Counted from the first letter of the stretch, positions 8,522 to 46,542 are shown. The stretch is 52,597 nucleotides of DNA from an uncultured Planctomycetaceae bacterium (GCA_964637625.1 CAZWWC010000001.1:1958-54554); one strand, 5' to 3'. Notes: generated from the sequence alone by a model not told the origin. Program-made: numbers and translations.

Positions 8522-8766
8522 GATTTGGATTTGGTCTGGATTTGGGCTCGCCCATCACCGCCACTTTGTCAAGAGCTGATTTCCCCAATAATCTAGACAA
8601 AGAGAGCCACGCCTGTTTCTCGGCCGGGTTTTCGATTAGACTAATGGTCTGTCAATCGGTTGATGGGTCGCGTGCCAATAGCGGCCGCAGGGCCGCTGCG
8701 GGGCCCAGGGGCAGGCAATCTGCCCATGGCATCCGACATTTTCACCATCACACCAAGGCTGGGGGA

Positions 8767-14704: not shown

Positions 14705-14784
14705 GACTGATGTGAACGCCGGTACCGTCCTCCTGAACGTACGTGGGAGATGGCCGACCTCGTTGCGGCCAACAAACAGCGACC

Positions 14785-22831: not shown

Positions 22832-23362
22832 ATGAACGCATTAGCCAAAGCGATCTACCTTGTGGGGCAACTCGCAAAAAAAATCCGCAGCCGAGTGCGG
22901 AATCAATACTACCGCCATTTGTTGAGGCATTTCGGGGAAGGTAGCCAGATTTGCGAGGGAGTGTTCATTACAACGCCGTGGAACGTCTCGATGGGCAAAG
23001 GGGTTCAGATTAACGGACGGGTTCATGTCCTAGCGCGCGAGGATGCTCCGGTCGACATCGGCGACGGTGTTGTCCTTTCGTACGAAGCCATGCTTCTCAC
23101 CGCCGGACTCGCTTATACCGGGAAAATCAAGAAAAGGGCACACCGTGCCCTTCCCATTGTGATTGAGAACGACGTTTGGATCGGGGCGCGAGCGATCATC
23201 CTGCCCGGCGTTCGCCTGGGCCGGAACGCCGTGGTGGCGGCAGGCAGTGTGGTTACGAAAGATGTCGCTCCTAACACCCTTGTTGCAGGCATACCGGCTA
23301 CCTTCAAAAAGATGATCCAAACCAGTTCAATCGTCGAGCAACAAACCAAGGCCGACCGATGA
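22832..23362 (+). CDS. Hexapeptide-repeat O-acetyltransferase (WbbJ/maltose-galactoside acetyltransferase-like)
   Basis: 176 aa, with NDVWIGARAIILPGVRLGRNAVVAAGSVVTKDVAPNTLVAGIPA, typical of sugar O-acetyltransferases. Confidence 0.8.
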   Translation: MNALAKAIYLVGQLAKKIRSRVRNQYYRHLLRHFGEGSQICEGVFITTPWNVSMGKGVQINGRVHVLAREDAPVDIGDGVVLSYEAMLLTAGLAYTGKIKKRAHRALPIVIENDVWIGARAIILPGVRLGRNAVVAAGSVVTKDVAPNTLVAGIPATFKKMIQTSSIVEQQTKADR

Positions 23363-23780: not shown

Positions 23781-24428
23781 ATGTCAGTCCGCATAAACAT
23801 AGGTTGTGGTCAAACACCAACAGATGGCTGGAATAACTATGATAATTCACCGAGCATTCGATTAGCCACAATTCCTCTATTGCCAAGGCTGATGAGGATC
23901 TTGAAGCTCCTTAACCAATCCCAGGAGAGGTACATTTCATTTGCCAAGAATGCACAAATCAGATGGGCAAATGCAAGCAAACATATTCCCGAGAAGGATG
24001 GATCCGTTGAGGTAGTCTACAGCAGCCACATGCTTGAGCACTTAGACGGGGAAGATGCCGTCAAGTTTCTCAAGGAGGCCCGCCGCGTCCTGAAAAGTGG
24101 GGGAATCATAAGAATTGCGGTTCCCGACATCAAGTATTGCGTGGAGAGCTATCTCAAGGATGGTGACGCAGACGCTTTCGTTGCATTAACCGGCTTAGGG
24201 AGGACAAGCTCACGATCAATCTTGGAAAGAATCAGGCATCTGGCCGTCGGCGATAGAAGTCACAAATGGATGTATGATGGACGTTCCTTGTGCAAGCTTT
24301 TGGAATCGGTCGGCTATCAGGAAGCAAGAGCCATGGAACAAGGCACCACCACCATCCCGGCAAGTGCGCCGCTGGATCTCGCGGAAAGGCCCGGAGAGAG
24401 CCTGTATGTAGAAGCGGTTAATCCATGA
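23781..24428 (+). CDS. Class I SAM-dependent methyltransferase (Methyltransf_11-like)
   Basis: INIGCGQTPTDGWNNYD (motif I-like) and VVYSSHMLEHLDGEDAVKFLKEARRVLKSGGIIRIAVPD. A hand count of the 60-nt line at 23821 gives 24/60 G+C, well below the flanking genes. Confidence 0.8.
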   Translation: MSVRINIGCGQTPTDGWNNYDNSPSIRLATIPLLPRLMRILKLLNQSQERYISFAKNAQIRWANASKHIPEKDGSVEVVYSSHMLEHLDGEDAVKFLKEARRVLKSGGIIRIAVPDIKYCVESYLKDGDADAFVALTGLGRTSSRSILERIRHLAVGDRSHKWMYDGRSLCKLLESVGYQEARAMEQGTTTIPASAPLDLAERPGESLYVEAVNP

Positions 24429-24646: not shown

Positions 24647-25735
24647 ATGCACAAGGTTCTCATCTGGATGAGCACGTCGAGCCATCATCAGACAGGGTTC
24701 TTCAACGCGTTACGCCAGAGCGGTCGCGTTGATCTTGGTGTTCGTTACGACCACCCGTTAAGCGAACGCCGCACGCTACTCGGCTGGCACGAAGTGGGCG
24801 ACCTTCCGGAAGGCGAACGGTACGTAGAAAAGCCGGTGGACCTGGAAGCAAGTGTTCCAGACTGGCGGGAGCGCATTCACGTTATTCCCGGCGCAAGGGC
24901 GCCGGTAGCAGGCGCGGTTTTGCGACAGATAATTCGCGCGGGCAGTCGTTGGGTTCACTGGAGCGAGTGCCGCCGGCACGGCTTGCGTCGGATTGCCGGC
25001 ATGCCGCGATGGATGCGGTACGCCCGACAAATCACGAGGACCGCTCTGGGGGCCTTTGCCATCGGGGACTTTGCGAGAAGCGACTTGCGGAAATTGGGGG
25101 TTCCCATCGAGCGAATAGCCTTCCTGCCCTATACCTGCGATGGCCTTGATCCGGCAGCACCATGCGACGAAACGATCAAGGATTTTGCGAACGGCAGAAG
25201 GCTTTTCCTGTTCTGTGGAGCGTTGTGCAAGAGAAAAGCGCCTGACGTTCTCTTGCGAAGCTACGCGGAGTTGCAGACGACCGACTGGGTGCTTGCCCTT
25301 GTGGGCCCTGACGTTTCCGGGGGAAAACACCGGCGCTTAGCCGAGACATTGGGCATTGCCGAACGTGTGCTCTTTCGAGGAACCATGCCCGCCGATAAGA
25401 TCGCCAACGTCATCCAGGCCGCGGATGTCATGATCCTGCCCTCTCGCGAGGACGGCTGGGGCGTCGTCCTGAACGAAGCGGCGTCGCTGGGCAGGGCACT
25501 GATCGCTTCCGATTGTGTCGGAGCCGGGCCGCACATGATCCGTTCCGGTGAAAACGGTTATATCGTTCGTGCGGCCGATCCGGGATCATTGGCCAACGCG
25601 ATGCGTGCTTACGTTAAAATGCCACAGCTTGCACAACAGCACGGAGCCGCCTCCTCACGGATCTTCGAGGCCTTCACGCCCCAGAGGAATGCGCAACGCT
25701 TCATTACAGCTCTGGAGGGGTGGTTGGGAATGTAG
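24647..25735 (+). CDS. Glycosyltransferase, GT4 (group 1)
   Basis: GGGGGAG SD sits 7 nt upstream of the ATG. C-terminal motif: MILPSREDGWGVVLNEAASLGRALIASDCVGAG (EX7E). Confidence 0.75.
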   Translation: MHKVLIWMSTSSHHQTGFFNALRQSGRVDLGVRYDHPLSERRTLLGWHEVGDLPEGERYVEKPVDLEASVPDWRERIHVIPGARAPVAGAVLRQIIRAGSRWVHWSECRRHGLRRIAGMPRWMRYARQITRTALGAFAIGDFARSDLRKLGVPIERIAFLPYTCDGLDPAAPCDETIKDFANGRRLFLFCGALCKRKAPDVLLRSYAELQTTDWVLALVGPDVSGGKHRRLAETLGIAERVLFRGTMPADKIANVIQAADVMILPSREDGWGVVLNEAASLGRALIASDCVGAGPHMIRSGENGYIVRAADPGSLANAMRAYVKMPQLAQQHGAASSRIFEAFTPQRNAQRFITALEGWLGM

Positions 25736-25965
25736 CACTCGCACTCTTGATGTATTCTTATGCAAAGAGCGTTGAAGATGTGTTTTGTCAGTACGGTGGG
25801 TAGCAGGGAGACTCCGTTGTGACCCCGCTCCTTCTGAGAATAGACCGACATCGGCAGTGCACGTTGGATGGCACTTTCGAACAGATAGTCGATGATCCAA
25901 ACCAGAGGATCTGCTCGATCGGGACCATACGGATTCACATCGACAAGAACAAGGGTGAGGTGAGT

Positions 25966-26661
25966 ATGGACATTCCGTTTGCGAGCACGGATGCCCTCTA
26001 TTGGAGTCTTCGGCGTGAGGAACTGCGTATCAGCAATGATCCCCGTTGCCTCGGGCAAGAAAACACCGCTGTGGATGATCGAAGCCTGTTCTCCATTCTC
26101 TAGTTTGGGGCCATTGTGCCTCCGCTGAGTCTATGGCGTGATATTGTTCGGTTTGTGCCTGGACAACGGTGGGTCGTGATGCAAGACAACCTGCAAATAC
26201 GGAGTTGCGGCCGTTTGGAGTCATGGCCGACAGGCACGGATACTGATTGGACACTTGGAGATGAAGATCAGCGAAAGGTGGTTCACCAGGTCCTTGATGA
26301 TAGCTTGGTGGAGGTGTGCCCGGAACGCAATCCGGTTTTGTTATTCAGCGGAGGTGTGGATTCAGGTCTGCTGGCTGCCCGTGTTGCGGCGCTCGGTTGG
26401 CGGGACGCCTTGCTCGTGAACTACAGTTTTGGAGATGCGGATCCGGAGTCCCACATGGCCGAAGCTATGGCGAAGCATTTGGGACTGCGGTTTAGGCGTG
26501 ATCATGGATTGTTGCCGGAGATTCACGAAGTATGTCCCAGCATCATCCACGTTCCATTCGTCGCCCCGCCGGTTGACTTGGAGGTTACGAGCCATGCAGA
26601 TGTAGGAATCCTCTGTTATAGCTATACTTCACTAGAGGGCATTTCAAAACGGTCATCCTGA
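25966..26661 (+). pseudogene. Asparagine-synthase-like (PP-loop amidotransferase) gene relic with an in-frame stop and 3' truncation
   Basis: The ATG at 25966 follows a GGTGAGG SD. An in-frame TAG lies at 26101-26103 and the same frame continues. It shows AsnB-like blocks FGAIVPPLSLWRDIVRFVPGQ and the PP-loop LLFSGGVDSGLLAA. Only ~95 aa follow the PP-loop where ~300 are expected. There is no N-terminal MCG glutaminase start. The frame then runs into repeat copy B. Confidence 0.55.
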
Positions 26662-26752
26662 GCGAAGCGAAGGATCTCCCCTCCGCGAAAGCCGAGATTC
26701 TTCGCTGCGCTCAGAATGACAACAATCAGAGCACCGGTTTTGAAATGTCCTC
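26635..26752. repeat. Nested-palindrome MITE-like repeat, copy B (subfamily 2)
   Basis: Outer arms are gagggcatttcaaaac and gttttgaaatgtcctc. Inner arms are gtcatcctgagcgaagcgaaggatctc and gagattcttcgctgcgctcagaatgac. It is the reverse complement of copy C with one mismatch in 118 nt (hand alignment). Confidence 0.9.
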
Positions 26753-26797
26753 TAAATAATCTGTTTTGTGCACCGAACAAGATTGAGGAAGTTGAAC

Positions 26798-27976
26798 ATG
26801 GAATCGCAAGGTAACGGAAACGAACAGATCGAACACGGGAAACCCGTCAGCGTTGTGATAGGGGGTGACGTCTATCCCGGGATGCGAGCCGAAGACTACT
26901 TCCGGCGGGGTGACGCCGAGGTACTCTTCGGGGACCTGTATCCCATGCTGGCGGAAGCTGATCTGAGTATAGTGAACTTGGAGTGTCCACTAGTCGAGTC
27001 TCCCCGTCCGATTCACAAGAGCGGTCCCACCCTGTCAAGCCACCCGGAGAGCGTCCACGGTTTGTGTGCAGCGGGGGTCGACCTTGTCGGGCTGGCGAAC
27101 AACCATGCGCTCGACCATGGAGAAGAAGGATTGGCAAATACCGTGTCGTGTTGTGAGAAGAGCGGATTAGCGACGGTTGGTGCCGGGCCTAATCTCATCG
27201 CCGCGCGACGCCCCTTTTTGCGCACAGTTTGTGGTATTCGAATTGGCGTAGTGGCCATGGCGGACCGAGAATTCTCCATCGCCACCGAGACGTCGTGGGG
27301 CGCCAACCCAATCAGTGTCATAGATTTCGTAAGATTGATGGGGGAGATTCGTGCCGATATCGACTACTTGATTGTCCTACTGCATGGCGGAAACGAGCAT
27401 TATCCATACCCAAGCCCCGGAATGATGGATACTGCGCATTTTCTCGTTGAACAGGGCGCGAACATCGTTATCAATCAACATACCCACTGCCCCGGGTGTG
27501 TTGAGTCATATCGGGGAGGTACTATTGTCTATGGACAAGGTAATTTCATTTTCGATTGCCCGGAAATACCCGATTCATGGCATGAGGGCTTCCTGGTCAA
27601 GATTGAGATCCACAATAATCGTGCGGCAGACGTACAATGGGTGCCATACACTCAATTCAGAGGCCATATCGGGGCACGTTGCATGAAGCCGCAAGCTGAA
27701 AGGGCATTTCTGGCGAAACTGGCGCAGCGGTCTTCCGAGATTCACGATAGCAGACTACTACGGGACCACTGGAACTCGTTCTGCGCCGGGCAAGCGTCCA
27801 AATATCTGAGTCTCTTGCTGGCGCACCATCGGCCCCTGATTCTCCTGAACCGATGGTTTCCGTTTGTGACTCGCGTCTACTCCAGGCGCGCCCTGCTCAC
27901 GGCATGCAACGTCGTTCGTTGCGAGGCCCACCGAGAAGCATTACTTACTGTGCTTGAAAACGATGTCCTGAAGTAA
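26798..27976 (+). CDS. CapA/PgsA-family metallophosphatase-fold protein (cytoplasmic, no TM)
   Basis: The ATG at 26798 follows a GAGGAAG SD; the track start at 26768 is a GTG lying just downstream of the repeat (26752). CapA-like blocks are VVIGGDVYPG, IVNLECPL, LVGLANNHALDHGEEGL, GLATVGAGPN and LIVLLHGGNEHYPYPSP...GANIVINQHTHC. A C-terminal ~100-aa extension is unassigned. Confidence 0.75.
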   Translation: MESQGNGNEQIEHGKPVSVVIGGDVYPGMRAEDYFRRGDAEVLFGDLYPMLAEADLSIVNLECPLVESPRPIHKSGPTLSSHPESVHGLCAAGVDLVGLANNHALDHGEEGLANTVSCCEKSGLATVGAGPNLIAARRPFLRTVCGIRIGVVAMADREFSIATETSWGANPISVIDFVRLMGEIRADIDYLIVLLHGGNEHYPYPSPGMMDTAHFLVEQGANIVINQHTHCPGCVESYRGGTIVYGQGNFIFDCPEIPDSWHEGFLVKIEIHNNRAADVQWVPYTQFRGHIGARCMKPQAERAFLAKLAQRSSEIHDSRLLRDHWNSFCAGQASKYLSLLLAHHRPLILLNRWFPFVTRVYSRRALLTACNVVRCEAHREALLTVLENDVLK

Positions 27977-28048
27977 CGACTGCAAAACGGCCTGGGTCAC
28001 GGGGGCACTTCGTTCGACACCAAGTAGCAAACCGATAGAGACCAAATC

Positions 28049-29416
28049 ATGCATGAGTCTCATAATCTAACCATCAAAGATCGAATCTTTTGGCTTAAGC
28101 AGAAGTGGGCTCGCCCCCGAGCCTACAGGTACTACCAGCAATTGCTAGAAAACCAGTTTCGATCACCGGACGAAATCATGGCGATCAATTGGGAAAAACG
28201 GAAGCGGTTGCTCAAATACGCGTATGAGCAAGTTCCTTTCTATAGAAAACGTTTTCAATCTGTGGGCCTGCTCCCGTCTGACGTGCGCGACATGCATCAC
28301 TGGAACGCCGTTCCCATATTGACAAAAGAGGATCTGGTGAAGCACTTCCATGAGTTGATGTCACCAGATGCAAATGCCTGCGACCGCTACTTGTCTACGA
28401 CTGGTGGTTCAACGGGGGAACCCGTTAAGGTCTATCACGACGCAAGGTATCCTATGGAAACACTGGGGTGGCGCATGTTGCAGTGGTGGGGGCTTTCATT
28501 CGGCAGCGATGTCGGTTATGCACGACGGTTAAGTAAGAAATCAGTGTTTCAACGAATCGTCAATTGCGCTATCTGGTGGCCCACCAAGCGGATTTGGCTC
28601 GATGCGTCGAGCATGACCCCACAGACCATCGTTCAATTCATCGAGGAGTTCAATCAATTGCGTCCCAGCTTGTTACAGGGATACGTGGGAGCAATTACGC
28701 ATTTGGCTGACTACATTGAGACGAATGGGCTGGAAATCGACTCGCCAAAGGCGATTTGGGTTACTTCGACCCCCCTGGCATCGGTGCAACGTGCGATGAT
28801 TGAACGGGTGTTCCGAGCACCCGTCTATGACCAATATGGATGTTGTGAGATCTTCTGGCTGGCGGCGGAATGCGGTGAGCACAAGGGCTTGCATATGTTC
28901 TCTGATGCTCGACATATCGAGTTCGTCGATGAAAATAACCAGATATGTGAAGTAGAAGAAATCGGTCGGATCATTGCCACGGACCTTGAAAACTATGTAT
29001 TTCCGCTGATTCGTTATGAAAATGGCGACGAAGGCTGCCAACTGGCGTCCAAATGCGGATGCGGCGTTCATTTGCCCATGATGGATGCTGTCAAAGGGCG
29101 TATCACGGATACGATCCGACTGCCAGGGGAAACCGTGATTAGTGGCGAGTACTTGACTACCATTTTTGATGAGTTTCCTAACGCCGTTCGCGCCTTTCAG
29201 GTAGTTCAGCAGGCGGATTGGTCACTTCTTCTTCGTGTTGTACCGTGTACCGACAAGGAGTGTTTCAACCTCGCCATAGAAAATGTCAAAAGCGATCTCG
29301 CGCAAAGGACGAACAATAGGGTGCCAATCCGCATTGAATCCGTGCAAGAAATCGTAGGCGACCGAGGGAAGCTACAGTATGTGATTAGCCGTGCAAAGGG
29401 AAATCCGCCAGAATGA
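28049..29416 (+). CDS. PaaK/coenzyme-F390-synthetase-like adenylate-forming ligase (CapK-type), paralogue 1
   Basis: N-terminal block: RKRLLKYAYEQVPFYRKRFQSVGLLPSDVRDMHHWNAVPILTKEDL. The nucleotide loop is STTGGSTGEP and the C-terminal Lys sits in DRGKLQYV. Confidence 0.8.
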   Translation: MHESHNLTIKDRIFWLKQKWARPRAYRYYQQLLENQFRSPDEIMAINWEKRKRLLKYAYEQVPFYRKRFQSVGLLPSDVRDMHHWNAVPILTKEDLVKHFHELMSPDANACDRYLSTTGGSTGEPVKVYHDARYPMETLGWRMLQWWGLSFGSDVGYARRLSKKSVFQRIVNCAIWWPTKRIWLDASSMTPQTIVQFIEEFNQLRPSLLQGYVGAITHLADYIETNGLEIDSPKAIWVTSTPLASVQRAMIERVFRAPVYDQYGCCEIFWLAAECGEHKGLHMFSDARHIEFVDENNQICEVEEIGRIIATDLENYVFPLIRYENGDEGCQLASKCGCGVHLPMMDAVKGRITDTIRLPGETVISGEYLTTIFDEFPNAVRAFQVVQQADWSLLLRVVPCTDKECFNLAIENVKSDLAQRTNNRVPIRIESVQEIVGDRGKLQYVISRAKGNPPE

Positions 29417-29550
29417 GTCACCGGCCTGTCTTCTTGCTGGCAGTGGCTTGTGACGAGGTTCGCGGAGTTGTGCGGTCGCCAGGAATTCGGCTGACATGTT
29501 GGCCTGACGGAAACTATGGCTCTCAATGTCAAGCAGGAAGGGTGGTAAGG

Positions 29551-30732
29551 ATGGAGGGTCGCTTTCACCACGATGGGCCGCTTCGCATTGCGGTCATTGC
29601 ACATGCGCTGCGCGCCGGTGGAGGCCTGTCGGCAGGTCAAAGTCTGATTGCCTCGCTCTCATCCGTTATGCCCGCGCATACCTATCTTTTTGTCATGCCC
29701 GAGCTTGACGAATATCGATCGATTCCCATTGACTCCGCAAAACATCAAACGGTTTTCTATCGCCGCCGCGGTGGGCACGTTGGACGCCATTTGTTCGATA
29801 TGTTTCGGCTACCTAAGATCGTCCGGCAATTCGAACCGGACGTGATACTGGCCTTGGGAAACAGAGGTATTTGCAGGCCGCCGTGCACGCAAGCCGTTCT
29901 TTGTCGAGACGCGCATTTGTTCTACCCGTTTCGACATTTCGGCAGGGAACTGCTAAGGGTGAAAGCGATGGCGGTTTACCACAAGTGGCTGCTGAAAAGA
30001 GAGCTTCGTCACACGCAATTACTCTTTTGCCAGACCGAGGTCGCCCGCAAGCGTCTGAAAGACACTTTTGATTATTCGGGGAGGGTGGCCGTTTGTGGAA
30101 ACGCCGTTTCGCTCGAAACTTTTCAGGTCGCCGCATGCGACATACCCAGTCCCCTTGCCGGCCTGCAAGACAAGATGAAACTGTTCTGTCTTGCCAGGTA
30201 CTACCCACAAAAGAATCTTGAGACCATTGTGGAGATGTTTGAGCGGTTTGGCGACGAGTTGGACGATGTGGTCGTGATGATCACGATCGCCGCCGATCAG
30301 CATCCCAGAGCGGGCAGGCTCCTGGCAAGAATCCAACGTGCGGGCCTGGGCGATCGGATCATCAACGTTGGCGTGTTGTCCCAGAAGGAAATCGCCGCTT
30401 ACTATCGCCATTGCCAGGCATTGCTTCTCCCCACGCTTCTCGAGTCCTTCACCAGAACCTATTTAGAGGCAATGCATTTCGGCATGCCCATCGTCACCAG
30501 TGATTTGGACTTTGCCCATGAAATATGTGGCGACGCTGCAGTCTATTTCGACCCCTGGAACGCGGAGGCAATGAAGAGTACAATTGTAAGATTGAAAAAC
30601 AGCCCGGAATTGGGGCAAGATCTTCTTTCGAAAGGTACCGTGCGACTGCAATCTCATTTTCTGTCTTGGGATCGAATAGCACAAAGCATGCTTGCGAATC
30701 TGCATGAGATTGTCCCAGCAAACAGTCCGTAG
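29551..30732 (+). CDS. Glycosyltransferase, GT4 (group 1)
   Basis: I prefer the ATG at 29551 (an AGGAAGG...AAGG purine run lies upstream), giving MEGRFHHDGPLRIAVIAHALRAGGG. The alternative is the ATG at 29413, which overlaps the previous stop. EX7E motif: LLPTLLESFTRTYLEAMHFGMPIVTSD. Confidence 0.75.
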   Translation: MEGRFHHDGPLRIAVIAHALRAGGGLSAGQSLIASLSSVMPAHTYLFVMPELDEYRSIPIDSAKHQTVFYRRRGGHVGRHLFDMFRLPKIVRQFEPDVILALGNRGICRPPCTQAVLCRDAHLFYPFRHFGRELLRVKAMAVYHKWLLKRELRHTQLLFCQTEVARKRLKDTFDYSGRVAVCGNAVSLETFQVAACDIPSPLAGLQDKMKLFCLARYYPQKNLETIVEMFERFGDELDDVVVMITIAADQHPRAGRLLARIQRAGLGDRIINVGVLSQKEIAAYYRHCQALLLPTLLESFTRTYLEAMHFGMPIVTSDLDFAHEICGDAAVYFDPWNAEAMKSTIVRLKNSPELGQDLLSKGTVRLQSHFLSWDRIAQSMLANLHEIVPANSP

Positions 30733-30822
30733 CCTCTCTTCTATTCCATCGCAACGAAAGGTTCAACCTGCCGGCCGATATCCCGCACTCATGGATATCC
30801 TTATCGTTGTAGGCTCAATCCG

Positions 30823-32361
30823 ATGAAGCAGAATGAGCGTAAAGTCGTACTTGCTGAAATGGAACGCAGAGTCCGCCTCGTTACAGGTGTCCGTGGCTAT
30901 CCCGAGCATGTTCCCTATGGGCCGGGAGTCGACTATCCCGAGCTTGCCGACTGCGCCTGGGCTCAAAAAGTGCCCGGCGACAACGAGACTTATGACGGCG
31001 TTCGCCGCATTCTCCAGGGAATGGGCCTGGACGAGGAACGTCTCGGGACCTCGCAGTGGAATCCCTTGAGTGACCTCGTGCCGCCGGGGGGACGCGTTAC
31101 TGTGAAGCCCAACATGGTGCGGCATTGGAACGAAAACAAAGACGACAGTTGGCAAACCGTGGTGACCCATTGGGCCGTCGTGCGACCGCTCGTTGACTAC
31201 GCGCTGCTGGCCGTGGGGCCGGGCGGACATGTTACCGTCGGAGACGCCCCGCACTGGGACTGTAACATGAACATCCTTGAAAGGCTGATCGATATTCCCG
31301 CCTTCCGCAAACACTATGATCAGACCGCGCCGGGACACGTGGATTTCATCGACTTCCGACCGGAATACTTCGCGGCTTCGGGCGTATCGAAATGCCAGCC
31401 GCGGCCCTTGCCCGGCGACCCTGAAGGCTATACCCTCGTGGATCTGAAAAACAACAGCATGTTTGCGGATCCTTGTCTGAATCCTAAACTATTCTATGGC
31501 GTGGGTTATGACAATCGGGCAACAGTACGCGCACACTCTCATGGCCGTCATCAGTATCGGATCGCCGGGTCCGCGCTCGACTGCGACCTTTTCATCAACG
31601 TCCCCAAGCTGAAAACCCATCACCTTCTCGGCATCACGACGGCCATGAAGAACCTTGTGGGCATCAACGGAGACAAGAATTACCTGCCCCATTTCCGTAT
31701 AGGTTTTACCAATAAGGGAGGAGACCAGTATCCGCGCCGCACACTGAATCTCCTGTTGCGCTACTGGATAAACCGACATGCCATGCCGATACTGGCCCGG
31801 AGCTATCTGTTGACGAAGATTTGGGGTAGACTACTGGGTCTGTTTCACATGATGGGAGGCAAGAATCCTTACGCCGGTGGTGGATGGATAGGAAATGATA
31901 CGGTCTGGAGGATGACACTCGATCTGAATCGCATTCTCCTGTACGCCCGGAAGGATGGAACGCTTGACCCCGATCAGAAGGCAAGACAATACTTGACCGT
32001 CGTGGACGGCATCGTTGCGGGAGAGGGGGAAGGACCGATGAACGTACAGTCGCGCCGGGCCGGCGTGCTTCTCGGCGCGGGGAATCCTCTTGCCTGTGAT
32101 TTGACGGCCTTGCGAATCATGGGGTTTGATCCGCAGCGCGCGAAGCTGATCTCCGAAGGTTTGAGAGACCATCCACTGCCCATAAGCCGCATAAGAAAAC
32201 CCGAAGAAATCGACCTGGCAACCTGTGCAACAGGCCGTTCGCCTCAATGGGATACCACACACTGGGATGACTTGCCCGACTATCATTTCATTCCGCCCAC
32301 CGGCTGGGAAGACATGGTGAGCAGCAAGAGGAATCGGACCGGGAGAGCGCCTCATGCGTAA
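30823..32361 (+). CDS. DUF362 domain protein
   Basis: GRVTVKPNMV, VVTHWAVVRPLVDYAL, VTVGDAP and NVPKLKTHHLLGITTAMKNLVGI match my memory of the DUF362 signature. No cysteine cluster is obvious. Confidence 0.7.
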   Translation: MKQNERKVVLAEMERRVRLVTGVRGYPEHVPYGPGVDYPELADCAWAQKVPGDNETYDGVRRILQGMGLDEERLGTSQWNPLSDLVPPGGRVTVKPNMVRHWNENKDDSWQTVVTHWAVVRPLVDYALLAVGPGGHVTVGDAPHWDCNMNILERLIDIPAFRKHYDQTAPGHVDFIDFRPEYFAASGVSKCQPRPLPGDPEGYTLVDLKNNSMFADPCLNPKLFYGVGYDNRATVRAHSHGRHQYRIAGSALDCDLFINVPKLKTHHLLGITTAMKNLVGINGDKNYLPHFRIGFTNKGGDQYPRRTLNLLLRYWINRHAMPILARSYLLTKIWGRLLGLFHMMGGKNPYAGGGWIGNDTVWRMTLDLNRILLYARKDGTLDPDQKARQYLTVVDGIVAGEGEGPMNVQSRRAGVLLGAGNPLACDLTALRIMGFDPQRAKLISEGLRDHPLPISRIRKPEEIDLATCATGRSPQWDTTHWDDLPDYHFIPPTGWEDMVSSKRNRTGRAPHA

Positions 32362-33685
32362 ATTGATTCTCTCTTTGGCTGATCGGTGGTATGGCTTCAC
32401 GCCCTACTTCGTTCTGTCGGCTTTGGAAGAATCCCAATTCTGGCCGTGTGAACGTCTGGAGCAATTGCAGCTTGAGCATTTGCGGAAACTGCTCATCCAT
32501 GCGAGTGTTCATGTACCTTTCTATCGCGATCTCTTCAAGAAGACGGCGTTCGATCCTCATGGGGTTCGCTGCCTCGAGGATATCCAATGTCTTCCCATCC
32601 TGGGAAAACGGGAGATCATGGCCGAGAGGGATCGCTTCCTCTCCGACGTCGCTCCAAGGCCCAGGGTCTGGCTGAAAACAACCGGCACTACGGGGAACCC
32701 CTTCGGCTTCGTCCGAACGCGTTTGGCGCAGAGCTATAAGATCGCCAGCCGCGTTCGTTTCAGACGTTGGTATGGGATCGAGCGCACCGACTCCTTGTTG
32801 AACGTCGGCGGAATCCCCTCGTACCATTCCAGTCTCAAGGAGAAGGTCTTTAACGCGATCCACTTCTATGCAACCAATCGCATTAACGTTTTCTCCTCCG
32901 ACCTCGAAGGGCCGGAACCGGAGTTCGCCGCGCGCCTCATCGAGGAATATCGTCTCAAAGCGGTCATGGGCTATCCCAGCGGCATCGCCGCGCTGGCCAA
33001 GTATCTTGCCGAGAGACGTCCCTTGACCCATCATCCCAAGGCCATCTTCACGAATTGCGAGACACTGACGGAACTGATGCGTCGTCAGATTCGCGAGGGT
33101 TTTGGCATCGAGCCTCGCAACGACTATATTGCCACCGAAGGGGCAATTGCCCATGAATGTCCCGAGGGCGGACTCCACGTGAACATGGAGGAGACCTTGG
33201 TGGAACTCGTGCCCACGGCGAGCACGGAAGACGGCACGGGGGAGGTGATCACCACTTTCTTGCACACCTTTGATTTCCCCTTGATACGTTACCGCTTGGG
33301 AGATATTGCCGGTTGGACGAACAAGCCGTGTCCTTGTGGCCGAGGCCTCGTGACCATCAACAACTTGTTTGGGCGCTTTGCTGATGGTATTGTATTTCCC
33401 GATGGAAGGGTTTTCACCGCCGCCAACCTGAATATGCGCATTGCGCATTTCCCCTTTATTGATCGTATTAGGCAATACCAGATCGCCCAACAAAGCGCGA
33501 ACGTTGTGGAGCTTCGCATCCTGAATACCCCGGACACCGACAGCGAGTCCGTAGTAGAGTTTCAAAAGGCGCTGAGCCGACTGTTTGTTGACCTGCGCGT
33601 CGAGGTTAAGCGCCTGGATGAACTCCCGCGAGAACCCACGGGCAAATTCCGCCCGATCATCGGGTTGAAAGAAGGAGTGGGCTAA
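32354..33685 (+). CDS. PaaK/coenzyme-F390-synthetase-like adenylate-forming ligase, paralogue 2
   Basis: The start overlaps the DUF362 stop by 8 nt (ATGCGTAA). Blocks are LQLEHLRKLLIHASVHVPFYRDLFKK...LEDIQCLPILGKREI, the loop KTTGTTGNPF and the C-terminal Lys in EPTGKFRPI. Confidence 0.8.
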   Translation: MRKLILSLADRWYGFTPYFVLSALEESQFWPCERLEQLQLEHLRKLLIHASVHVPFYRDLFKKTAFDPHGVRCLEDIQCLPILGKREIMAERDRFLSDVAPRPRVWLKTTGTTGNPFGFVRTRLAQSYKIASRVRFRRWYGIERTDSLLNVGGIPSYHSSLKEKVFNAIHFYATNRINVFSSDLEGPEPEFAARLIEEYRLKAVMGYPSGIAALAKYLAERRPLTHHPKAIFTNCETLTELMRRQIREGFGIEPRNDYIATEGAIAHECPEGGLHVNMEETLVELVPTASTEDGTGEVITTFLHTFDFPLIRYRLGDIAGWTNKPCPCGRGLVTINNLFGRFADGIVFPDGRVFTAANLNMRIAHFPFIDRIRQYQIAQQSANVVELRILNTPDTDSESVVEFQKALSRLFVDLRVEVKRLDELPREPTGKFRPIIGLKEGVG

Positions 33686-35091
33686 TGCCGGACTCGCTAG
33701 CCGAACGCATCTATTACCGGCTTCCGTGCTGGACGCAGAACCTGCTGCTTACCTGCCACGGTTTCCACATCCGACACACTCGCTACAACAAGCACTTCTA
33801 TCGGCGTCTTCACGAGCTTCGACAAAGCGAATGGTGGGCGCAAGAGAAAATCCGCGACTATCAGAACAAGAAGCTCCGCACGCTGTTGAAACACGCCAAC
33901 GAAACGGTTCCCTTTTATCGTGAATGGTTCGGCGATCACGGCGTGCGGATTGAGAACATCAAGACCATCGAAGACCTGGCGGCCCTGCCCATCCTCACCA
34001 AACCAGTCGTGCGCGAGAACCAGGAACGAATGGTCTCTTCGCAATTCCATAAGCGACGTCTGCTGAAGGTTCTTACCAGCGGAACGACGGGAACGCCTCT
34101 CGAAATCGCAATCACCAAAGAAGCCCTCGCTTTCCAATGGGCCGTCTGGTGGCGACATCGAGCACGTTTCGGGCTTCATGTCAACAACCGGTTCCTCATG
34201 TTCGGGGCCAGGGTGCCAGTCTCCCAGAACCAGCAGAATCCGCCGTTCTGGCGACGCGACTTTGCGAACCACCGAACCTATCTCAGCACCTATCATCTGA
34301 CCAAGAACAACATGACCGCCGTCGTCGATTATCTCAACTCGACACATTTCGATTTCTTCGCCGGGTACCCTAGCGCGATGTTGGTGTTGGCCAATCATAT
34401 TCTCGATACCGGCCAGCAACTCACCAACCGCCCCAAAATGGTGATCGCCGGATCCGACACCCTTTACCCCGGATTTCAGTCGCGAATTTGCCAGGCCTTT
34501 GGGGCTCCCATCAGCGAGCAATACGGCATGGTCGAATTCGCCGGCAACCTCTCCAAATGCGACCGGGGATGCTTTCACGTCGACTTCGAGTGCTGCCACG
34601 TGGAAACGCAACCGATTGACGACGATCAGGGATTCGTCGAGCTCCTGCTCACCGGTTGGGGAAACCCGGCCATGCCCTTCATCCGCTACCGAATCGGAGA
34701 TTTCGCAAAACCCAGCGACGGCCCGTGCTCCTGTGGACGTCATTCGGAATGTCTCGATTCCATCGATGGGCGCAGCGAGGATTACATCGTAACGCCCGAC
34801 GGCCGAATGATCATGGGAATGAACCAGGTTTTCGAGTACGCAAGCGGAGCCGATGAAATCCAAATCCACCAGAAGGAAGCCCATTCCATTGAGGTCCGCA
34901 TTGTCCCAGGGCCGGCATTTGGCGACGCCGACAAAGCAGCCTTGACCAGAGAACTCCGTCGGCGAATTGGAGATAACATGAATATCGAGTTCATTCTCGT
35001 GGACTCCATCCCCAGGACGAGTTCTGGCAAGTTCAAAGCGGTTGTTTCGGACGTTGAAATAGCCAAGTGGAGGAATTGTCACCTTCGTTAG
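33685..35091 (+). CDS. PaaK/coenzyme-F390-synthetase-like adenylate-forming ligase, paralogue 3
   Basis: The start shares one nt with the previous stop (TAATG). Blocks are YQNKKLRTLLKHANETVPFYREWFGDHGV...IEDLAALPILTKPVV, the loop LTSGTTGTPL and the C-terminal Lys in TSSGKFKAV. Confidence 0.8.
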   Translation: MPDSLAERIYYRLPCWTQNLLLTCHGFHIRHTRYNKHFYRRLHELRQSEWWAQEKIRDYQNKKLRTLLKHANETVPFYREWFGDHGVRIENIKTIEDLAALPILTKPVVRENQERMVSSQFHKRRLLKVLTSGTTGTPLEIAITKEALAFQWAVWWRHRARFGLHVNNRFLMFGARVPVSQNQQNPPFWRRDFANHRTYLSTYHLTKNNMTAVVDYLNSTHFDFFAGYPSAMLVLANHILDTGQQLTNRPKMVIAGSDTLYPGFQSRICQAFGAPISEQYGMVEFAGNLSKCDRGCFHVDFECCHVETQPIDDDQGFVELLLTGWGNPAMPFIRYRIGDFAKPSDGPCSCGRHSECLDSIDGRSEDYIVTPDGRMIMGMNQVFEYASGADEIQIHQKEAHSIEVRIVPGPAFGDADKAALTRELRRRIGDNMNIEFILVDSIPRTSSGKFKAVVSDVEIAKWRNCHLR

Positions 35092-35310
35092 CACGAATGG
35101 TTCATCCTCGGATGTGACTACTCCGTGTTGCGACATTAAGAACTGAAGAATTGCACATTGCCGTGAGTATCTTGGAGAACCCAAAGACGCGCAGAGGATT
35201 CGTGATTCGCAGGTTGTGGTATCGCCACTTCAGAAATCAGTCTCGGAAGAAGAACAGGGACGCAGGGTGATGAACAGAGTACACGTTACGTCTGTCTCCA
35301 GTTATGACAA

Positions 35311-35428
35311 GAGGACATTTCAAAACCGGTGCTCTGATTGTTGTCATTCTGAGCGCAGCGAAGAATCTCGGCTTTCGCGGAGGGCAGATCCTTCGCTTCG
35401 CTCAGGATGACCGTTTTGAAATGCCCTC
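35311..35428. repeat. Nested-palindrome MITE-like repeat, copy C (subfamily 2, inverted relative to B)
   Basis: gaggacatttcaaaaccggtgctctgattgttgtcattctgagcgcagcgaagaatctcggctttcgcggagggcagatccttcgcttcgctcaggatgaccgttttgaaatgccctc. This equals the reverse complement of copy B except for one base next to the central loop. Confidence 0.9.
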
Positions 35429-35652
35429 AAGATTGATGAAATCCGTCATGTTGTCGAGTCAGCTTGTGGACTGGACTCGGAAATCGCTTCCCGTCTGGCA
35501 ACGATCCCGCGCGTTTCGTGCCGGTCTAGGCGGCACACTGTGTGAGGAGACAACCTTGACCATGACTCAACGCATACCTTCATAACCCCTGGTATAAGAG
35601 CCGGGGCAGGTCACAAGCGCCTAGGGTATCCCCTGGCACACAGAGACGTTTT

Positions 35653-36471
35653 ATGAATACTGACAATCATCGCAAAGCAGAAGTGAGAGACTTCTGGAAC
35701 GACAAAAGCTGTGGTGAAGTATATGCCGTTGGGCAGTCAGAGAACGACTATTATGAATCACATCGTGCAGCAAGGTATAGACTTGAACCTTACATCTATG
35801 ATTTTGCCAAGTTTCATGAAGGACGTGGCAAAGATGTTCTGGAAATTGGAATCGGCATGGGAGCAGACCATGTTGAATGGGCCAAATCAAACCCAAGATC
35901 TCTGACCGGAGTCGATTTAACTCCCAGGGCTGTTGAACACACGAAGAAGAGACTGGCCGTCTATCAATTAACATCGGATGTCCAAGTGGCGGATGCAGAG
36001 AAGCTGCCATTCCATGATGATTCATTTGATTTGGTGTATTCATGGGGTGTCTTGCACCATACCCCCAATACGCCGCAGGCTATCCGTGAGGTTTTTCGAG
36101 TGCTCCGGCCTGGCGGGATAACCAGAATGATGATTTATCACAAGTATTCTCTCACGGGCTACATGTTATGGATTCGGTATGGTTTCTTGGCGGGGCGTCC
36201 TTTCCGTTCCCTTAGTGAAATCTATGCCAACCACCTGGAGAGCCCCGGAACAAAAACATATTCCATTGAAGAAGCAAGAAAGATGTTATCTCAATTCGTC
36301 CAGGTGGATATGAAGATCCAGTTAGGCTTCGGTGATCTATTAGAAGGTGCTGCCGGTCAAAGACACAGCGGCATATTGTTGTCGATCGCTAAGAAGTTGT
36401 GGCCTAGAAGACTACTGAAAACTGTGTTTAAGCATCATGGATTGATGTTGCTCATAGAGGCAAGAAAATAG
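35653..36471 (+). CDS. Class I SAM-dependent methyltransferase (Methyltransf_11-like)
   Basis: VLEIGIGMGADHVEW (motif I), LTGVDLTPRAVEH, and ADAEKLPFHDDSFDLVYSWGVLHHTPN...VFRVLRPGG. Confidence 0.8.
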   Translation: MNTDNHRKAEVRDFWNDKSCGEVYAVGQSENDYYESHRAARYRLEPYIYDFAKFHEGRGKDVLEIGIGMGADHVEWAKSNPRSLTGVDLTPRAVEHTKKRLAVYQLTSDVQVADAEKLPFHDDSFDLVYSWGVLHHTPNTPQAIREVFRVLRPGGITRMMIYHKYSLTGYMLWIRYGFLAGRPFRSLSEIYANHLESPGTKTYSIEEARKMLSQFVQVDMKIQLGFGDLLEGAAGQRHSGILLSIAKKLWPRRLLKTVFKHHGLMLLIEARK

Positions 36472-36660
36472 AAGGCGGAGTCTCTGGGGTCATGGAAAGT
36501 GAAGTGGCCCTGGTGCTCTCGACTGAAAACCGGGGCATTCCAAAAGGACTTGACAATTAAAGTAGAGCCCATGAGTACAGGATGGGTGTCACTCGCGGGG
36601 GCACACGCGACAGTTTCCTTGAGCAAGACGAATAACCTATCGGGGTCGTAAGACACGCGC

Positions 36661-38436
36661 ATGTGCGGGATCTTTGGCTGCATTTCGACCGATAAAGTTC
36701 TCATCGAAGAGAACATCCTCCCTCATCGTGGGCCGGATGACTGGGGTGTGAAGTACTTTCACACCCCCGTTGGGCATTTGACTCTGTTCCAATCGCGTTT
36801 GAGTATCATCGGTCTCGGCAAACAGGGGCATCAACCCTTCGAGAAGCATCCGGGCAAGGTCCTTACGTACAACGGGGAAATATACAATTTCAAGGATCTG
36901 CGCGAAGAATTGCGCCAAGGCCACGGCGTGGATTTCTCCACGCAAACCGATACAGAGGTCCTTTACGAAGCGCTCATCTGTTGGGGATGGCGACGCACGC
37001 TGGAAAAGGTTAACGGAATCTTCGCCTTCTCTTTCTATGACGCCGACCAACAGACCATCGTGCTCGTCAGGGATCATTTAGGTGTCAAGCCCATCTATTA
37101 CTCCTTCGCCGATAACGTGATGACGTGGAGTTCAGAGGCCAAGACGTTCTTTGCACTGGGCCTTGTCTCGCCGGTGCTGAACAAACCTCTGCTTGGCGAA
37201 TACTTCGCCAACGGATGGATCTACGAGCCCGACACGCTTTTTGCCGGCGTTTTCAAGCTCGAGGCCGGTCATTGCGTGGAAATCAACGTCGCCGACCGCA
37301 CATGGACGAAAACTCGTTACTGGGACGTTGCCAACGCCTCCCACGACGCAAACGTCGATATAGCGACCATCGTGAAGGATCAAACGGTTGCCGACGTCCC
37401 GATCGGAACGTATTTCAGCGGTGGCGTCGATTCATCCATCGTCGTTTGCTTGCTGAAGGATAAGAACCTCACCAACTTCAATCTGGCCATGGGTGATTCC
37501 GAATCAAAGCGCGTCTCGATCATGGCCAAAAAGTATTGCCTGCAAATGGAATACATCCATTATGAACCGAGTAATCTGTCGGTTTATGACCGGTTGGTGT
37601 ATTACATGGATGAACCCATCGCCGACGCGGCGATTCTTCCCGCGTACTTGTTGGCGCAGAAGTCCAGGCAAGCGGGTCGCGTTGTGATGCTCTCAGGCAT
37701 GGGCGGCGACGAGATCGATGCCGGCTACACGCGCCACAAGATTCTCGCTAGACTCGGGTGTTTTAGGATGCTGCGATGGGTCCCCGCCTTCTTGATCGAG
37801 ACCGTGGCACGAGGGCGTATCAAGCGCGACCTTCTGCGATTGAAACGTTTCGTTGATGCTCCGGTTCCCGAAAACTACTTCAGCCTGACCAGTTATTTCT
37901 CGCGAGAGGAAATCGAGAATCTCGTCGGTGAGGGTTGGTTTTCGTCCTATCAGGACAAGATCGCAGGCTTGACGAAATCAGTGGACGCCACCCATGTGTT
38001 TCATTACCTCGATTTCAAAGGGTTTCTGAGCAGCCACAATCTGATCTATATGGACAAGGCATCCATGGCCGCGTCCATCGAGGTGCGAGTGCCGCTGTTG
38101 GATAAGAATCTGGCCGCGAAGTTCTTCAAGACCATTCACCTTCGGTCCCACGCAAACAAATCTCGCCTGAAGGCGTATTTGAAAACGTTGCTCGGAGATG
38201 ATTATGTCGACGTTAAAAAAGCGGGCTTCCGATACGACATCGACAAATGGTTATTGCACCACATCGATTGGGCTGAGGTCTGCGACTTCTTCGAACGCGA
38301 AAAAGTGCTGAATACTCAGCCTTTGCGATCCTATTTGGCCCAAGCGGGCAAGAGTATTGTTGAAATGTCAGCAAAACTGTGGCACTTCTACACACTCTAT
38401 ATTTGGATCAGGACTTTCCACGTCAAATGTCACTGA
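36661..38436 (+). CDS. asnB: Asparagine synthase (glutamine-hydrolysing)-family amidotransferase
   Basis: It starts MCGIFG (the Ntn Cys2 glutaminase start). GEIYNFKDLREEL and DTEVL are in the GATase domain. The PP-loop is YFSGGVDSSIVV, followed by LSGMGGDEIDAGY. Confidence 0.85.
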   Translation: MCGIFGCISTDKVLIEENILPHRGPDDWGVKYFHTPVGHLTLFQSRLSIIGLGKQGHQPFEKHPGKVLTYNGEIYNFKDLREELRQGHGVDFSTQTDTEVLYEALICWGWRRTLEKVNGIFAFSFYDADQQTIVLVRDHLGVKPIYYSFADNVMTWSSEAKTFFALGLVSPVLNKPLLGEYFANGWIYEPDTLFAGVFKLEAGHCVEINVADRTWTKTRYWDVANASHDANVDIATIVKDQTVADVPIGTYFSGGVDSSIVVCLLKDKNLTNFNLAMGDSESKRVSIMAKKYCLQMEYIHYEPSNLSVYDRLVYYMDEPIADAAILPAYLLAQKSRQAGRVVMLSGMGGDEIDAGYTRHKILARLGCFRMLRWVPAFLIETVARGRIKRDLLRLKRFVDAPVPENYFSLTSYFSREEIENLVGEGWFSSYQDKIAGLTKSVDATHVFHYLDFKGFLSSHNLIYMDKASMAASIEVRVPLLDKNLAAKFFKTIHLRSHANKSRLKAYLKTLLGDDYVDVKKAGFRYDIDKWLLHHIDWAEVCDFFEREKVLNTQPLRSYLAQAGKSIVEMSAKLWHFYTLYIWIRTFHVKCH

Positions 38437-42490: not shown

Positions 42491-42506
42491 TCCTGAAAAT
42501 AAGTTC

Positions 42507-43787: not shown

Positions 43788-43989
43788 AAAACCATGTAAC
43801 ACTCCAGCTGTGTAGGCAGCAACCGCGGTTGAAAAGCGGCCGTTTCTCGCGACGAGAACACTTGGTCGCCGTCCCGGCACGGCGACAGGACAGTACTCAG
43901 GGAAGACGTCGAGCAGGCTCGACGGCTGACGACGCCATACGGCTAACGTGTTGCCAAAACAGAAATCGTTATCTTATCGGAGCCTCTCC

Positions 43990-46300: not shown

Positions 46301-46438
46301 GTCAGTAGTTCCAAATTCCATCGAGACCCGGCATTGTCATTCTGAGCGTAGCGAAGAATCTCCTTGGACAATCGAGATCCTTCGCTACGCTCAGGATGAC
46401 CTGCCGCGGTATCAGCCAGCCAAACTTGGAACTACAGA
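46301..46438. repeat. Nested-palindrome MITE-like repeat, copy D (subfamily 1, inverted relative to A)
   Basis: Inner arms are gtcattctgagcgtagcgaagaatctc (46336-46362) and gagatccttcgctacgctcaggatgac (46374-46400). Outer arms are cagtagttccaaa and aacttggaactac. It aligns with the reverse complement of copy A at roughly nine positions in ten (hand alignment, one 1-nt indel). Confidence 0.85.
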
Positions 46439-46542
46439 CAGCATATATAGTGCCCTCTCGCAGACCAGTCCGGGACACCGGGTCTGGCAACCTGGCTCGC
46501 CGAGGCGCCGCGGGCTCCAACAAAACGTTTGAAGGTGCGTTC

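Follow-up and report, generated by a model that had tools for sequence, protein, structure and literature searches.

Six adjacent genes in a polysaccharide locus of an uncultured Planctomycetaceae bacterium are a lineage-specific juxtaposition of three sub-modules, and not one conserved pathway. They lie within a stretch of 52,597 nucleotides (GCA_964637625.1 CAZWWC010000001.1:1958-54554), hereafter the window, and encode a CapA-like protein, three CapK/PaaK-like adenylate-forming ligases (LigA, LigB and LigC), a family-4 glycosyltransferase (GT4) and a DUF362 protein. The sub-modules are best explained as CapA-like + LigA + GT4, DUF362 + LigB, and LigC. An initial annotation, made by a model from the sequence, had taken the six genes for a single module; LigC, however, belongs functionally with genes that lie downstream of the block, up to ~45.1 kb. 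We are highly confident that the ligases are adenylating enzymes that tailor an exopolysaccharide (EPS), and we tentatively propose that, within the EPS locus, the block serves for tailoring in the cytoplasm, with the ligases forming amides on a (hexosaminuronic) acid.

Three sub-modules in one block

The block comprises six intact, co-directional open reading frames (ORFs) on the + strand, 26768/26798-35091, all encoding soluble proteins. ORF calls, together with Pfam, NCBIfam and PDB searches, confirmed both the extent of these genes and the families first assigned to them. Hydrophobic segments are missing from all six proteins (maximum 19-residue Kyte–Doolittle value, KD19, ≤1.38), which agrees with the cytoplasmic location suggested earlier for the CapA-like protein; Wzx, Wzy, WecA and the exosortase (Xrt) of the window have 6-11 such segments each. 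The DUF362 and LigB genes overlap by 8 bp, and the LigB stop and LigC start codons overlap as ATGA. A longer GT4 ORF, beginning at 29413, overlaps the LigA stop codon; a start near 29542 is more likely, since the public gene call and the alignment with the related contig described below agree on it.

The complete block recurs only in a close relative, the metagenome contig L168, in which all six genes appear in unchanged order, with 74-82% amino-acid identity (75% for LigA) and one extra glycosyltransferase inserted. Between the window and this contig, the ratio of nonsynonymous to synonymous substitution rates (dN/dS) is 0.08-0.13 for every gene of the block, and by this evolutionary measure the genes are under purifying selection and functional. 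The LigC gene of L168 is broken by a frameshift (12774-14304) and is followed by a separate 383-aa gene for a Gfo/Idh/MocA oxidoreductase (GFO; 14327-15478), while in locus L169 a LigC ortholog and a Gfo/Idh/MocA domain form a single fused protein (12860-15454, 864 aa); no such fusion was found among the 120 best LigC homologs. At the corresponding position, the window has a 561-bp gap with hairpin c3 in it, and then a methyltransferase and an AsnB-type amidotransferase, instead of a fused or separate GFO.

Gene neighborhoods were surveyed in 80 genome loci around DUF362 homologs, mostly from Myxococcota and ‘Deltaproteobacteria’ metagenome-assembled genomes (MAGs) and otherwise from Spirochaetes (nine), Planctomycetota (five) and a handful of other sources; conserved partners were found by searching with the window proteins and from public gene calls. 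The common order is (WecB)-exosortase-EpsI-WcaI-like GT4-ligase-DUF362-(AsnB)-ADH/GFO, in which the last gene encodes a bi-domain alcohol dehydrogenase (ADH) and GFO protein. This order is highly syntenic and recurs in dozens of MAGs from Myxococcota, ‘Deltaproteobacteria’ and Spirochaetes (L006-L084; e.g., L004 5772-13629, L009, L038, L044), and no description of the WecB-exosortase-EpsI-GT4-ligase-DUF362-ADH/GFO cassette was found in the literature searched. A ligase stands directly beside DUF362 in 45 of 61 loci, ADH/GFO lies at most 5 kb downstream in 43 of 52, and an exosortase at most 5 kb upstream in 26 of 52; the DUF362-ligase-ADH/GFO arrangement near exosortase genes spans Myxococcota, Spirochaetota and Planctomycetota. 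Among the 80 loci, one ligase was present in 58, two in 3 and three in none. CapA-like genes occurred in the DUF362 flanks only in L005 (a 78% relative, downstream) and L014 (upstream, on the opposite strand).

When the ligases were clustered, LigC joined 50 DUF362-partner ligases, LigB joined the planctomycete-type arrangement DUF362>LigB>CapA (L002, L005), and LigA joined a CapA>LigA pair (L104). Closer homologs of LigC, with 50-59% identity, are spread over many phyla, and those at 50-57% identity were found in GT-ligase-ADH/GFO-(WecB)-heparinase-like-GT4 cassettes of Spiribacter roseus, a planctomycete MAG, a 2.5-Mb assembly and Rhodohalobacter.

The neighborhoods of CapA-like homologs were surveyed as well, in 80 metagenome loci. 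A GT4 gene lay at most 5 kb from the CapA-like gene in 13 of 18 loci, and CapA>Lig or Lig>CapA pairs were seen in 9 of 79; polysaccharide loci regularly contain members of this soluble CapA-like family. DUF362 and ligase genes are strongly coupled, CapA-like and ligase genes are only loosely associated, and outside the window the full six-gene set was seen in L168 only.

The ligases, the DUF362 protein and the CapA-like protein

The three ligases share 26-28% pairwise identity, and each is ~24% identical to Escherichia coli PaaK. They are thus mutually divergent and intact, as had been claimed: alignment with E. coli PaaK shows that LigA, LigB and LigC all keep the ANL core motifs, namely the P-loop G-x-T-G-x-P, YGxxE, (I)RYxxxD, the GRxxD hinge and the C-terminal GK, with G95, T97, G98, P100, Y238, E242, R301, Y302, D306, G326, R327, D330, G423 and K424 invariant in all three. 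The loop S/T-G-[GT]-T-G, previously ascribed to each of them together with the GK lysine, does not describe LigA, whose P-loop reads GGSTGEP. NCBIfam models for DVU1553, FlxY, PaaK and F390 synthetase match all three ligases below threshold (E 1e-10 to 1e-34), and a phmmer search of the PDB returned the PaaK structures 4r1l, 2y27 and 9s3l (E ~1e-22; LigA to 9s3l and 4r1l, E ~6e-22). In precomputed annotation, PF27533 CapK_C is recorded on LigA (weakly) and LigC and not on LigB, which is tied to the other two by 27-28% identity and the same NCBIfam models.

Two specific identities were rejected: PaaK (TIGR02155), with 78.8, 56.7 and 72.9 bits across the ligases against a cutoff of 646.3, and coenzyme F390 synthetase (TIGR03335), with 53.4, 39.0 and 40.5 bits against 458.7. 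The window ligases have the domain architecture and all adenylation core motifs in common with the PaaK/F390 synthetase group (COG1541), yet they fall far under its equivalog cutoffs, carry an extra CxCG motif, and have neither paa genes nor a methanogen context around them. On F390 synthetase in polysaccharide loci and on amide ligases for uronic acids, the literature search yielded no usable material. The CxCG motif stands just ahead of the hinge in all three ligases (LigA ~326-330, LigB 327-331, LigC 348-352); E. coli PaaK lacks it, whereas PDB entry 9s3l has it, and in this branch it may typically serve as a structural metal site. All three ligases also have a conserved cysteine in the ExC region.

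DUF362 has >4000 homologs, and its best Pfam stretch covers only profile positions 79-199. The AlphaFold2 (AF2) model is two-domain, with a mean predicted local distance difference test score (pLDDT) of 87 and a predicted template modeling score (pTM) of 0.91. All of its Foldseek matches with E ≤0.01 belong to the LarA family, i.e., lactate/malate racemases and other nickel-pincer enzymes (probability 0.84-1.0), so that LarA-superfamily nickel-pincer nucleotide enzymes (PDB 5HUQ, 9Q3J, 7S91) are its only significant structural matches; Pfam clan CL0471 holds both DUF362 and the LarA N-domain. The protein thus has a LarA-like fold, and the initial annotation's view of DUF362, which assigned it no function, has to be revised. 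Compared with LarA, the DUF362 protein is ~90 residues longer and displays no sequence-level similarity. Its invariant residues include H116, D146-C147, H266, K276 and H290, and their conservation suggests an active site. The spacing H266-x9-K276-x13-H290, together with H116, resembles that of LarA H108, H174, K184 and H200, a likeness in spacing only and not a residue-level superposition; the invariant D-C pair presumably has no counterpart among the LarA active-site residues. Enzymes of the LarA superfamily racemize 2-hydroxy acids (PMC11770544).

The CapA-like protein, with >2000 homologs, had been placed in a family known only from poly-gamma-glutamate synthesis. This picture is now too narrow: MslH, a Ca-dependent epimerase of the C-terminal Trp in a lasso-peptide precursor, is a member of the same PGA_cap family (PMC10406935, PMC8179263) and the closest solved structure to the window protein (PDB 8GQ9). 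A PDB sequence search matched the CapA-like protein to MslH with E 1.3e-15, and Foldseek with the AF2 model (pLDDT 90.8) placed MslH on top (E 6e-22, template modeling (TM) score 0.67), followed by 5'-nucleotidases (E 1e-10, TM 0.42); the next neighbors after MslH are 5'-nucleotidases, YmdB and purple acid phosphatases. In MslH, E44, N87, H259 and H261 are metal ligands, H88/D91 and H295/D11 are catalytic dyads, and degenerate motifs accompany the second metal's loss; a role as glutamate epimerase in poly-gamma-glutamate has been put forward for CapA itself (PMC10406935, PMC8179263).

Across 25 members, the CapA-like family has D24, E62, N102, H103, D106, H196, E200, H228 and H230 invariant, and invariant counterparts exist for MslH D11, E44, N87, H88, D91, H259 and H295. 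MslH H261 aligns with a non-histidine position, with the invariant E200 nearby. As in MslH, motif I lacks the DxH histidine (GGD24-V-Y), and in motif II a glutamate replaces the GD aspartate (NLE62). The model is consistent with an MslH-like, single-metal calcineurin fold. The two proteins are both soluble, with 17% identity over the structural alignment; the CapA-like protein adds a C-terminal helical region of ~90 residues (298-391), and only this protein has a polysaccharide-synthesis context. Assignment to the MslH equivalog NF038314 was rejected (64.2 bits against 700), and the window contains no lasso-peptide genes. The PGA_cap domain is likewise common to CapA/PgsA of poly-gamma-glutamate synthesis, but the window protein lacks their N-terminal membrane anchor; a PgsBCA/CapBCA system was rejected, with no PgsB/CapB or PgsC/CapC among the window ORFs scanned and no anchor.

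In the literature searched, the triple-ligase arrangement, the ligase-DUF362-ADH/GFO association near exosortases, a soluble MslH-like CapA in polysaccharide loci, and the LarA fold of DUF362 in such a context are undescribed, and nothing usable was found on heparinase-like/GFO/2-epimerase cassettes. That a CapK-type ligase may decorate a sugar acid is, as a general idea, already known.

The surrounding locus and the edges of the block

The whole window is essentially a single long + strand polysaccharide locus of the Wzx/Wzy type, linked to an exosortase. Upstream of the block and on the same strand, it encodes a Wzc-like tyrosine kinase, a WecA-like initiating transferase, EpsI (TIGR02914, 44.2 against a cutoff of 42.8), WecB, Wzx, a Wzy-like protein and GT4s. 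The exosortase is not XrtA, for which it scores 144.6 where 208 is required. Downstream follow an S-adenosylmethionine (SAM)-dependent methyltransferase, AsnB, ADH/GFO, a heparinase-II/III-like protein, a WcaI-like GT4, a second WecB and a sugar nucleotidyltransferase. The AsnB-type neighbors noted earlier indeed flank the block, as a truncated fragment on the left and a full-length gene on the right (Table 1). The nearest genome match of the DUF362 gene is in a Thermoguttaceae (Planctomycetota) MAG, at 78% identity. PDB relatives of ADH/GFO are generic (inositol or glucose-fructose dehydrogenases and secondary ADHs), as is that of the heparinase-like protein (heparinase III), and neither identifies a substrate. 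The heparinase II/III fold is specialized for abstracting the uronate C5 proton in polysaccharide lyases, and the presence of such a protein in the cassette suggests that the cassette sugar is a uronic acid.

Table 1. Features of the window and their positions, counted from its first letter.
Feature	Position	Strand	Remarks
PEP-CTERM protein	4612-6366	+	TIGR02595, 22.7 vs cutoff 16
Exosortase	11251-12222	+	TIGR02602, 148.5 vs cutoff 105.55
Hexapeptide acetyltransferase	22832-23362	+	Sole acyltransferase of the window, 3.4 kb upstream of the block
Truncated Asn-synthase-like ORF	26116-26661	+	181 aa; PP-loop region only (SGGVDS)
Hairpin c2	26654-26718	.	Palindromic, resembling a repetitive extragenic palindrome (REP) or miniature inverted-repeat transposable element (MITE); left edge of the block; RNA fold -46 kcal/mol, z -7.9
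CapA-like	26798 (ATG) or 26768 (GTG) to 27976	+	Pfam PF09587 PGA_cap, 184.7 bits vs cutoff 27
LigA	28049-29416	+	CapK/PaaK-like adenylate-forming ligase
GT4	29542 (or 29413)-30732	+	Glycos_transf_1, 68.5 bits vs cutoff 26.4
DUF362	30823-32361	+	PF04015, 86.8 bits vs cutoff 24; 500 aa
LigB	32354-33685	+	CapK/PaaK-like ligase, partner of DUF362
LigC	33685-35091	+	CapK/PaaK-like ligase
Hairpin c3	35343-35411	.	Right edge of the block; inverted copy of c2
SAM-dependent methyltransferase	35653-36471	+	GC 0.458
AsnB-type glutamine amidotransferase, full-length	36661-38436	+	Often between DUF362 and ADH/GFO in related loci
Bi-domain Zn-ADH + Gfo/Idh/MocA oxidoreductase	38470-40680	+	736 aa; most constant partner of the ligase/DUF362 pair
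Heparinase II/III-like protein	40703-42490	+	Uronate C5 chemistry fold
WcaI-like GT4	42450-43787	+	
WecB-type UDP-GlcNAc 2-epimerase, second copy	43948-45105	+	

The block is bracketed by two inverted palindromes of ~110 nt, c2 and c3, whose cores are identical at 116 of 118 positions. An outer pair of a related subtype (3202-3261 and 46338-46398), likewise inverted and identical at 105 of 115 positions, brackets the whole EPS locus. The four hairpins, in two subtypes, share the core arm CATYCTGAGCGNAGCGAAGRATC, for which eight matches were counted against none expected in shuffled sequence, and their predicted folds range from -46 to -70 kcal/mol. An Rfam scan found nothing in the window and no family for the hairpins. 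They are absent from homologous loci of relatives and from every other locus compared except L085, which is from the same organism; the core motif was also detected in four IMG/VR contigs. Given the bracketing hairpins, 26798-35091 looks like a natural unit, though the usual partners of LigC lie beyond it.

Hairpin c2 supplies the stop codon and final residues of the truncated Asn-synthase-like ORF. Full-length Asn_synthase-only genes (520-543 aa) stand upstream of GT4-CapA in L165, and when remnants of a GFO or of the rest of the Asn-synthase-like gene were sought in the gaps 25600-26900 and 35000-35750, the known fragment alone turned up. The fraction of G+C (GC) is 0.544 for the block overall and 0.50-0.57 for its genes, against 0.63-0.65 (third codon positions, GC3, 0.75-0.80) for ADH/GFO, the heparinase-like gene and the second WecB; GC3 of the methyltransferase is 0.47. 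This heterogeneity suggests that parts of the locus differ in origin, and the paired hairpins, truncated ORF and lower GC fit assembly of the locus by recombination. Scans for promoter and terminator consensus sequences over 25500-36800 found sites no commoner than in shuffled sequence and no operon boundaries.

Elsewhere in the window, a 215-aa ORF (23781-24428) matches only the C-terminal half of SAM-methyltransferase profiles (positions ~43-93 of 95); the gene may be incomplete, or its start may be wrongly placed. Outlying genes encode an AcsV-like corrinoid activation protein (1287-3140), a TIGR03790-family protein (8125-10581), a 1507-aa TPR protein (46396-50919) and a Ser/Thr protein kinase (50985-52520).

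Proposed tailoring chemistry and known systems

The closest functional precedent is Vibrio cholerae VpsH, the only polysaccharide-pathway member of this kind of ligase that we found with functional data. VpsH, a PaaK/CapK-like protein with 27% identity to E. coli PaaK, is needed for the addition of glycine to GulNAcA on a lipid-linked intermediate of Vibrio polysaccharide (VPS), and when it is deleted in a vpsI background, a lipid-linked Glc-GulNAcA disaccharide without glycine is trapped; ATP-dependent carboxylate activation was proposed by the authors, and the VPS locus also uses a WecB-type epimerase (VpsA) and acetyltransferases (PMC13463779). The view that PaaK-like ligases have no defined substrate is outdated by this genetic assignment. 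By analogy with VpsH, ATP-dependent carboxylate activation giving amide substituents, already envisaged in the initial annotation, is the best-precedented reading of the window ligases.

In the scheme that we propose, WecB would provide UDP-ManNAc, an oxidoreductase (candidate, the bi-domain ADH/GFO) would give a hexosaminuronic acid, and GT4 would move this acid onto the undecaprenyl-PP-linked repeat unit, with tailoring acting on nucleotide-sugar or undecaprenyl-PP-linked intermediates in the cytoplasm. Each ligase would adenylate a carboxylate with ATP and condense it with an amine to form an amide-linked substituent, as proposed for VpsH, and the three ligases may install three different substituents, as the initial annotation suggested. 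The activated carboxylate would most probably be C6 of the uronic acid, the alternative being a free acid, with which an amino sugar is then acylated, and AsnB would turn leftover carboxylate into a primary amide. Acting as a single-metal acid/base enzyme of the MslH type, the CapA-like protein would invert the carbon alpha to a free carboxylate, either in an attached amino acid (L to D) or at uronate C5, while the LarA-fold DUF362 protein would perform a stereo-inverting or redox step on a ligase substrate or product. Every substrate, the uronic acid included, is inferred, as are the amide chemistry and what CapA-like, DUF362 and ADH/GFO do; for CapA-like and DUF362 we are less confident than for the ligases.

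Several observations weigh against this scheme. PaaK-family enzymes are classically CoA ligases, and no result identifies a substrate. No UDP-sugar 6-dehydrogenase (WecC/UDPG_MGDP_dh-type) was detected among the window ORFs scanned, which is why ADH/GFO is the candidate acid-maker; the window does encode Wzx, Wzy, GT4s and two copies of WecB, and a WecC-type dehydrogenase was seen beside the homologous Spiribacter cassette. DUF362 is absent from all four LigC-type cassettes inspected. A ligase adjoins the CapA-like gene in only 5 of 41 loci with both flanks (~12%), so the role of the CapA-like protein need not involve a ligase product, and its conserved residues are also those of metallophosphoesterases, so that they do not prove epimerase activity. 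For DUF362, global TM scores to the LarA family are low (0.23-0.35), sequence and profile searches of the PDB gave chance matches only, and a relaxed Pfam scan showed no LarA_N match; because of these search results, the LarA link comes from fold and clan only. No larB, larC or larE gene was found in the 52.6-kb window. VpsH and the window ligases are likened by published description and not by sequence, and the evidence on VpsH is genetic only (PMC13463779).

The main rival explanation is that the ligases are acyl-CoA or acyl-adenylate synthetases for free organic acids (hydroxy, aryl/alkyl), with acyltransferases then acylating hydroxyl or amino groups of the sugar; DUF362 would supply the right 2-hydroxy acid stereoisomer to its partner ligase, much as alanine racemase does for D-alanine ligation. 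The best-characterized relatives are CoA ligases or enzymes that activate aryl acids (PaaK, FlxY, DVU1553, AjiA1, 2-hydroxyisobutyryl-CoA synthetase), the racemization of 2-hydroxy acids by the LarA superfamily (PMC11770544) and the tight ligase-DUF362 coupling would suit a pair of racemase and activating enzyme, and hexapeptide acyltransferases (AcT) adjoin the sub-modules as AcT-CapA-LigA in L168, AcT-DUF362-LigB in L169, and in L096. The window, too, has an acyltransferase, but it is a single one located outside the block, the partners most often conserved with the ligases modify sugars (ADH/GFO, heparinase-like, WecB and GT4) and are not acyltransferases or acyl carrier proteins, and VpsH, the member with functional data, adds an amino acid. 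We consider this explanation rather unlikely.

It is similarly doubtful that the CapA-like protein is an ordinary metallophosphoesterase, acting on a phosphorylated amine after ligation, a sugar phosphate or a nucleotide, and not an epimerase. Its fold is calcineurin-like, its structural neighbors after MslH are phosphatases and YmdB, the NNH-x-x-D and H...H motifs are common to phosphoesterases, and many polysaccharide loci have the gene but no ligase; glucuronamide formation in Campylobacter jejuni, moreover, includes a phosphatase step after ligation. MslH is, however, much closer than any phosphatase in both E-value and TM, and motifs I and II are degenerate in the MslH manner.

A further reading takes the CapA-like and DUF362 families, both uncharacterized, for glycan-level stereo-inverting enzymes that work with CapK-type ligases, which we regard as improbable at present. 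The CapA-like protein would then epimerize hexuronate C5 or the alpha-carbon of an amide-linked amino acid, placing D-amino acids on the polysaccharide, and DUF362 would use a LarA-type, possibly nickel-pincer, hydride transfer on a sugar acid or hydroxy acid.

Even less probable is the construction, in place of three independent substituents, of a short peptide-like or pseudopeptide side chain: one ligase would attach the first amino acid to the sugar acid, the others would extend it stepwise through its free carboxylate, and the MslH-like CapA would epimerize the C-terminal residue to give a D-amino-acid glycopeptide decoration. The close spacing or translational coupling of three divergent ligases, the CapA/ligase pairs among the metagenome loci, the action of MslH on a C-terminal residue with a free carboxylate and the epimerase role proposed for CapA in poly-gamma-glutamate would all accommodate it. 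Each ligase, however, falls into a separate ortholog group with its own usual partner, ligases are single in most genomes, which suggests independent reactions, and we know of no glycan structure with such a side chain. That the block is a decaying, non-functional recombined mosaic without a role in EPS synthesis, as its lower GC, near-identical inverted flanking hairpins, truncated left-edge ORF and the frameshifted LigC of L168 might intimate, is scarcely credible in view of six full-length, same-strand ORFs with intact motifs, coupled starts and stops, and low dN/dS.

How charged and how antigenic a bacterial polysaccharide is, and what matrix properties it has, are controlled by its amino-acid and amide decorations. 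Very little is known of the enzymes responsible for installing these, and VpsH, in 2026, was the first CapK-like ligase to receive a genetic assignment. CapK-like ligases have fixed, uncharacterized partners (LarA-fold DUF362, bi-domain ADH/GFO, heparinase-like and MslH-like CapA proteins), and solving one cassette would give functions to several large ‘unknown’ families across several phyla and could reveal new chemistry of sugar-acid epimerization. The cultured Spiribacter roseus, which carries a ligase-ADH/GFO-WecB-GT4-heparinase-like cassette, offers a convenient system. Should the stereo-inverting roles prove true, exopolysaccharides would acquire L-hexuronates or D-residue decorations by a new route.

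Among known systems, amide formation by the window ligases would find its nearest parallel in VPS tailoring (VpsH, the VpsA/VpsB/VpsK ManNAcA module and VpsJ). Both have a ligase in a Wzx/Wzy locus with a WecB-type 2-epimerase, hexapeptide acetyltransferases and GT4s, in both the proposed target is a lipid-linked hexosaminuronic acid that would receive an amide-linked amino acid, and VpsH and the window ligases are similarly distant from E. coli PaaK (27% vs. ~24%). VPS has one ligase, whereas the window locus has three; the window lacks a WecC/VpsB-type dehydrogenase and a WecG-type transferase and has the bi-domain ADH/GFO and a heparinase-II/III-like protein instead, and it adds the LarA-fold DUF362, the MslH-like CapA, AsnB and the exosortase/PEP-CTERM context. 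WbpS/AsnB-type enzymes, which form uronamides in O-antigen synthesis, provide a second comparison, in that an AsnB-type amidotransferase stands in a polysaccharide locus beside sugar-carboxylate enzymes, as it does here. Unlike in that system, the AsnB of the window is accompanied by ANL-type ligases, and their presence beside it suggests that they use amines other than ammonia, or a different carboxylate.

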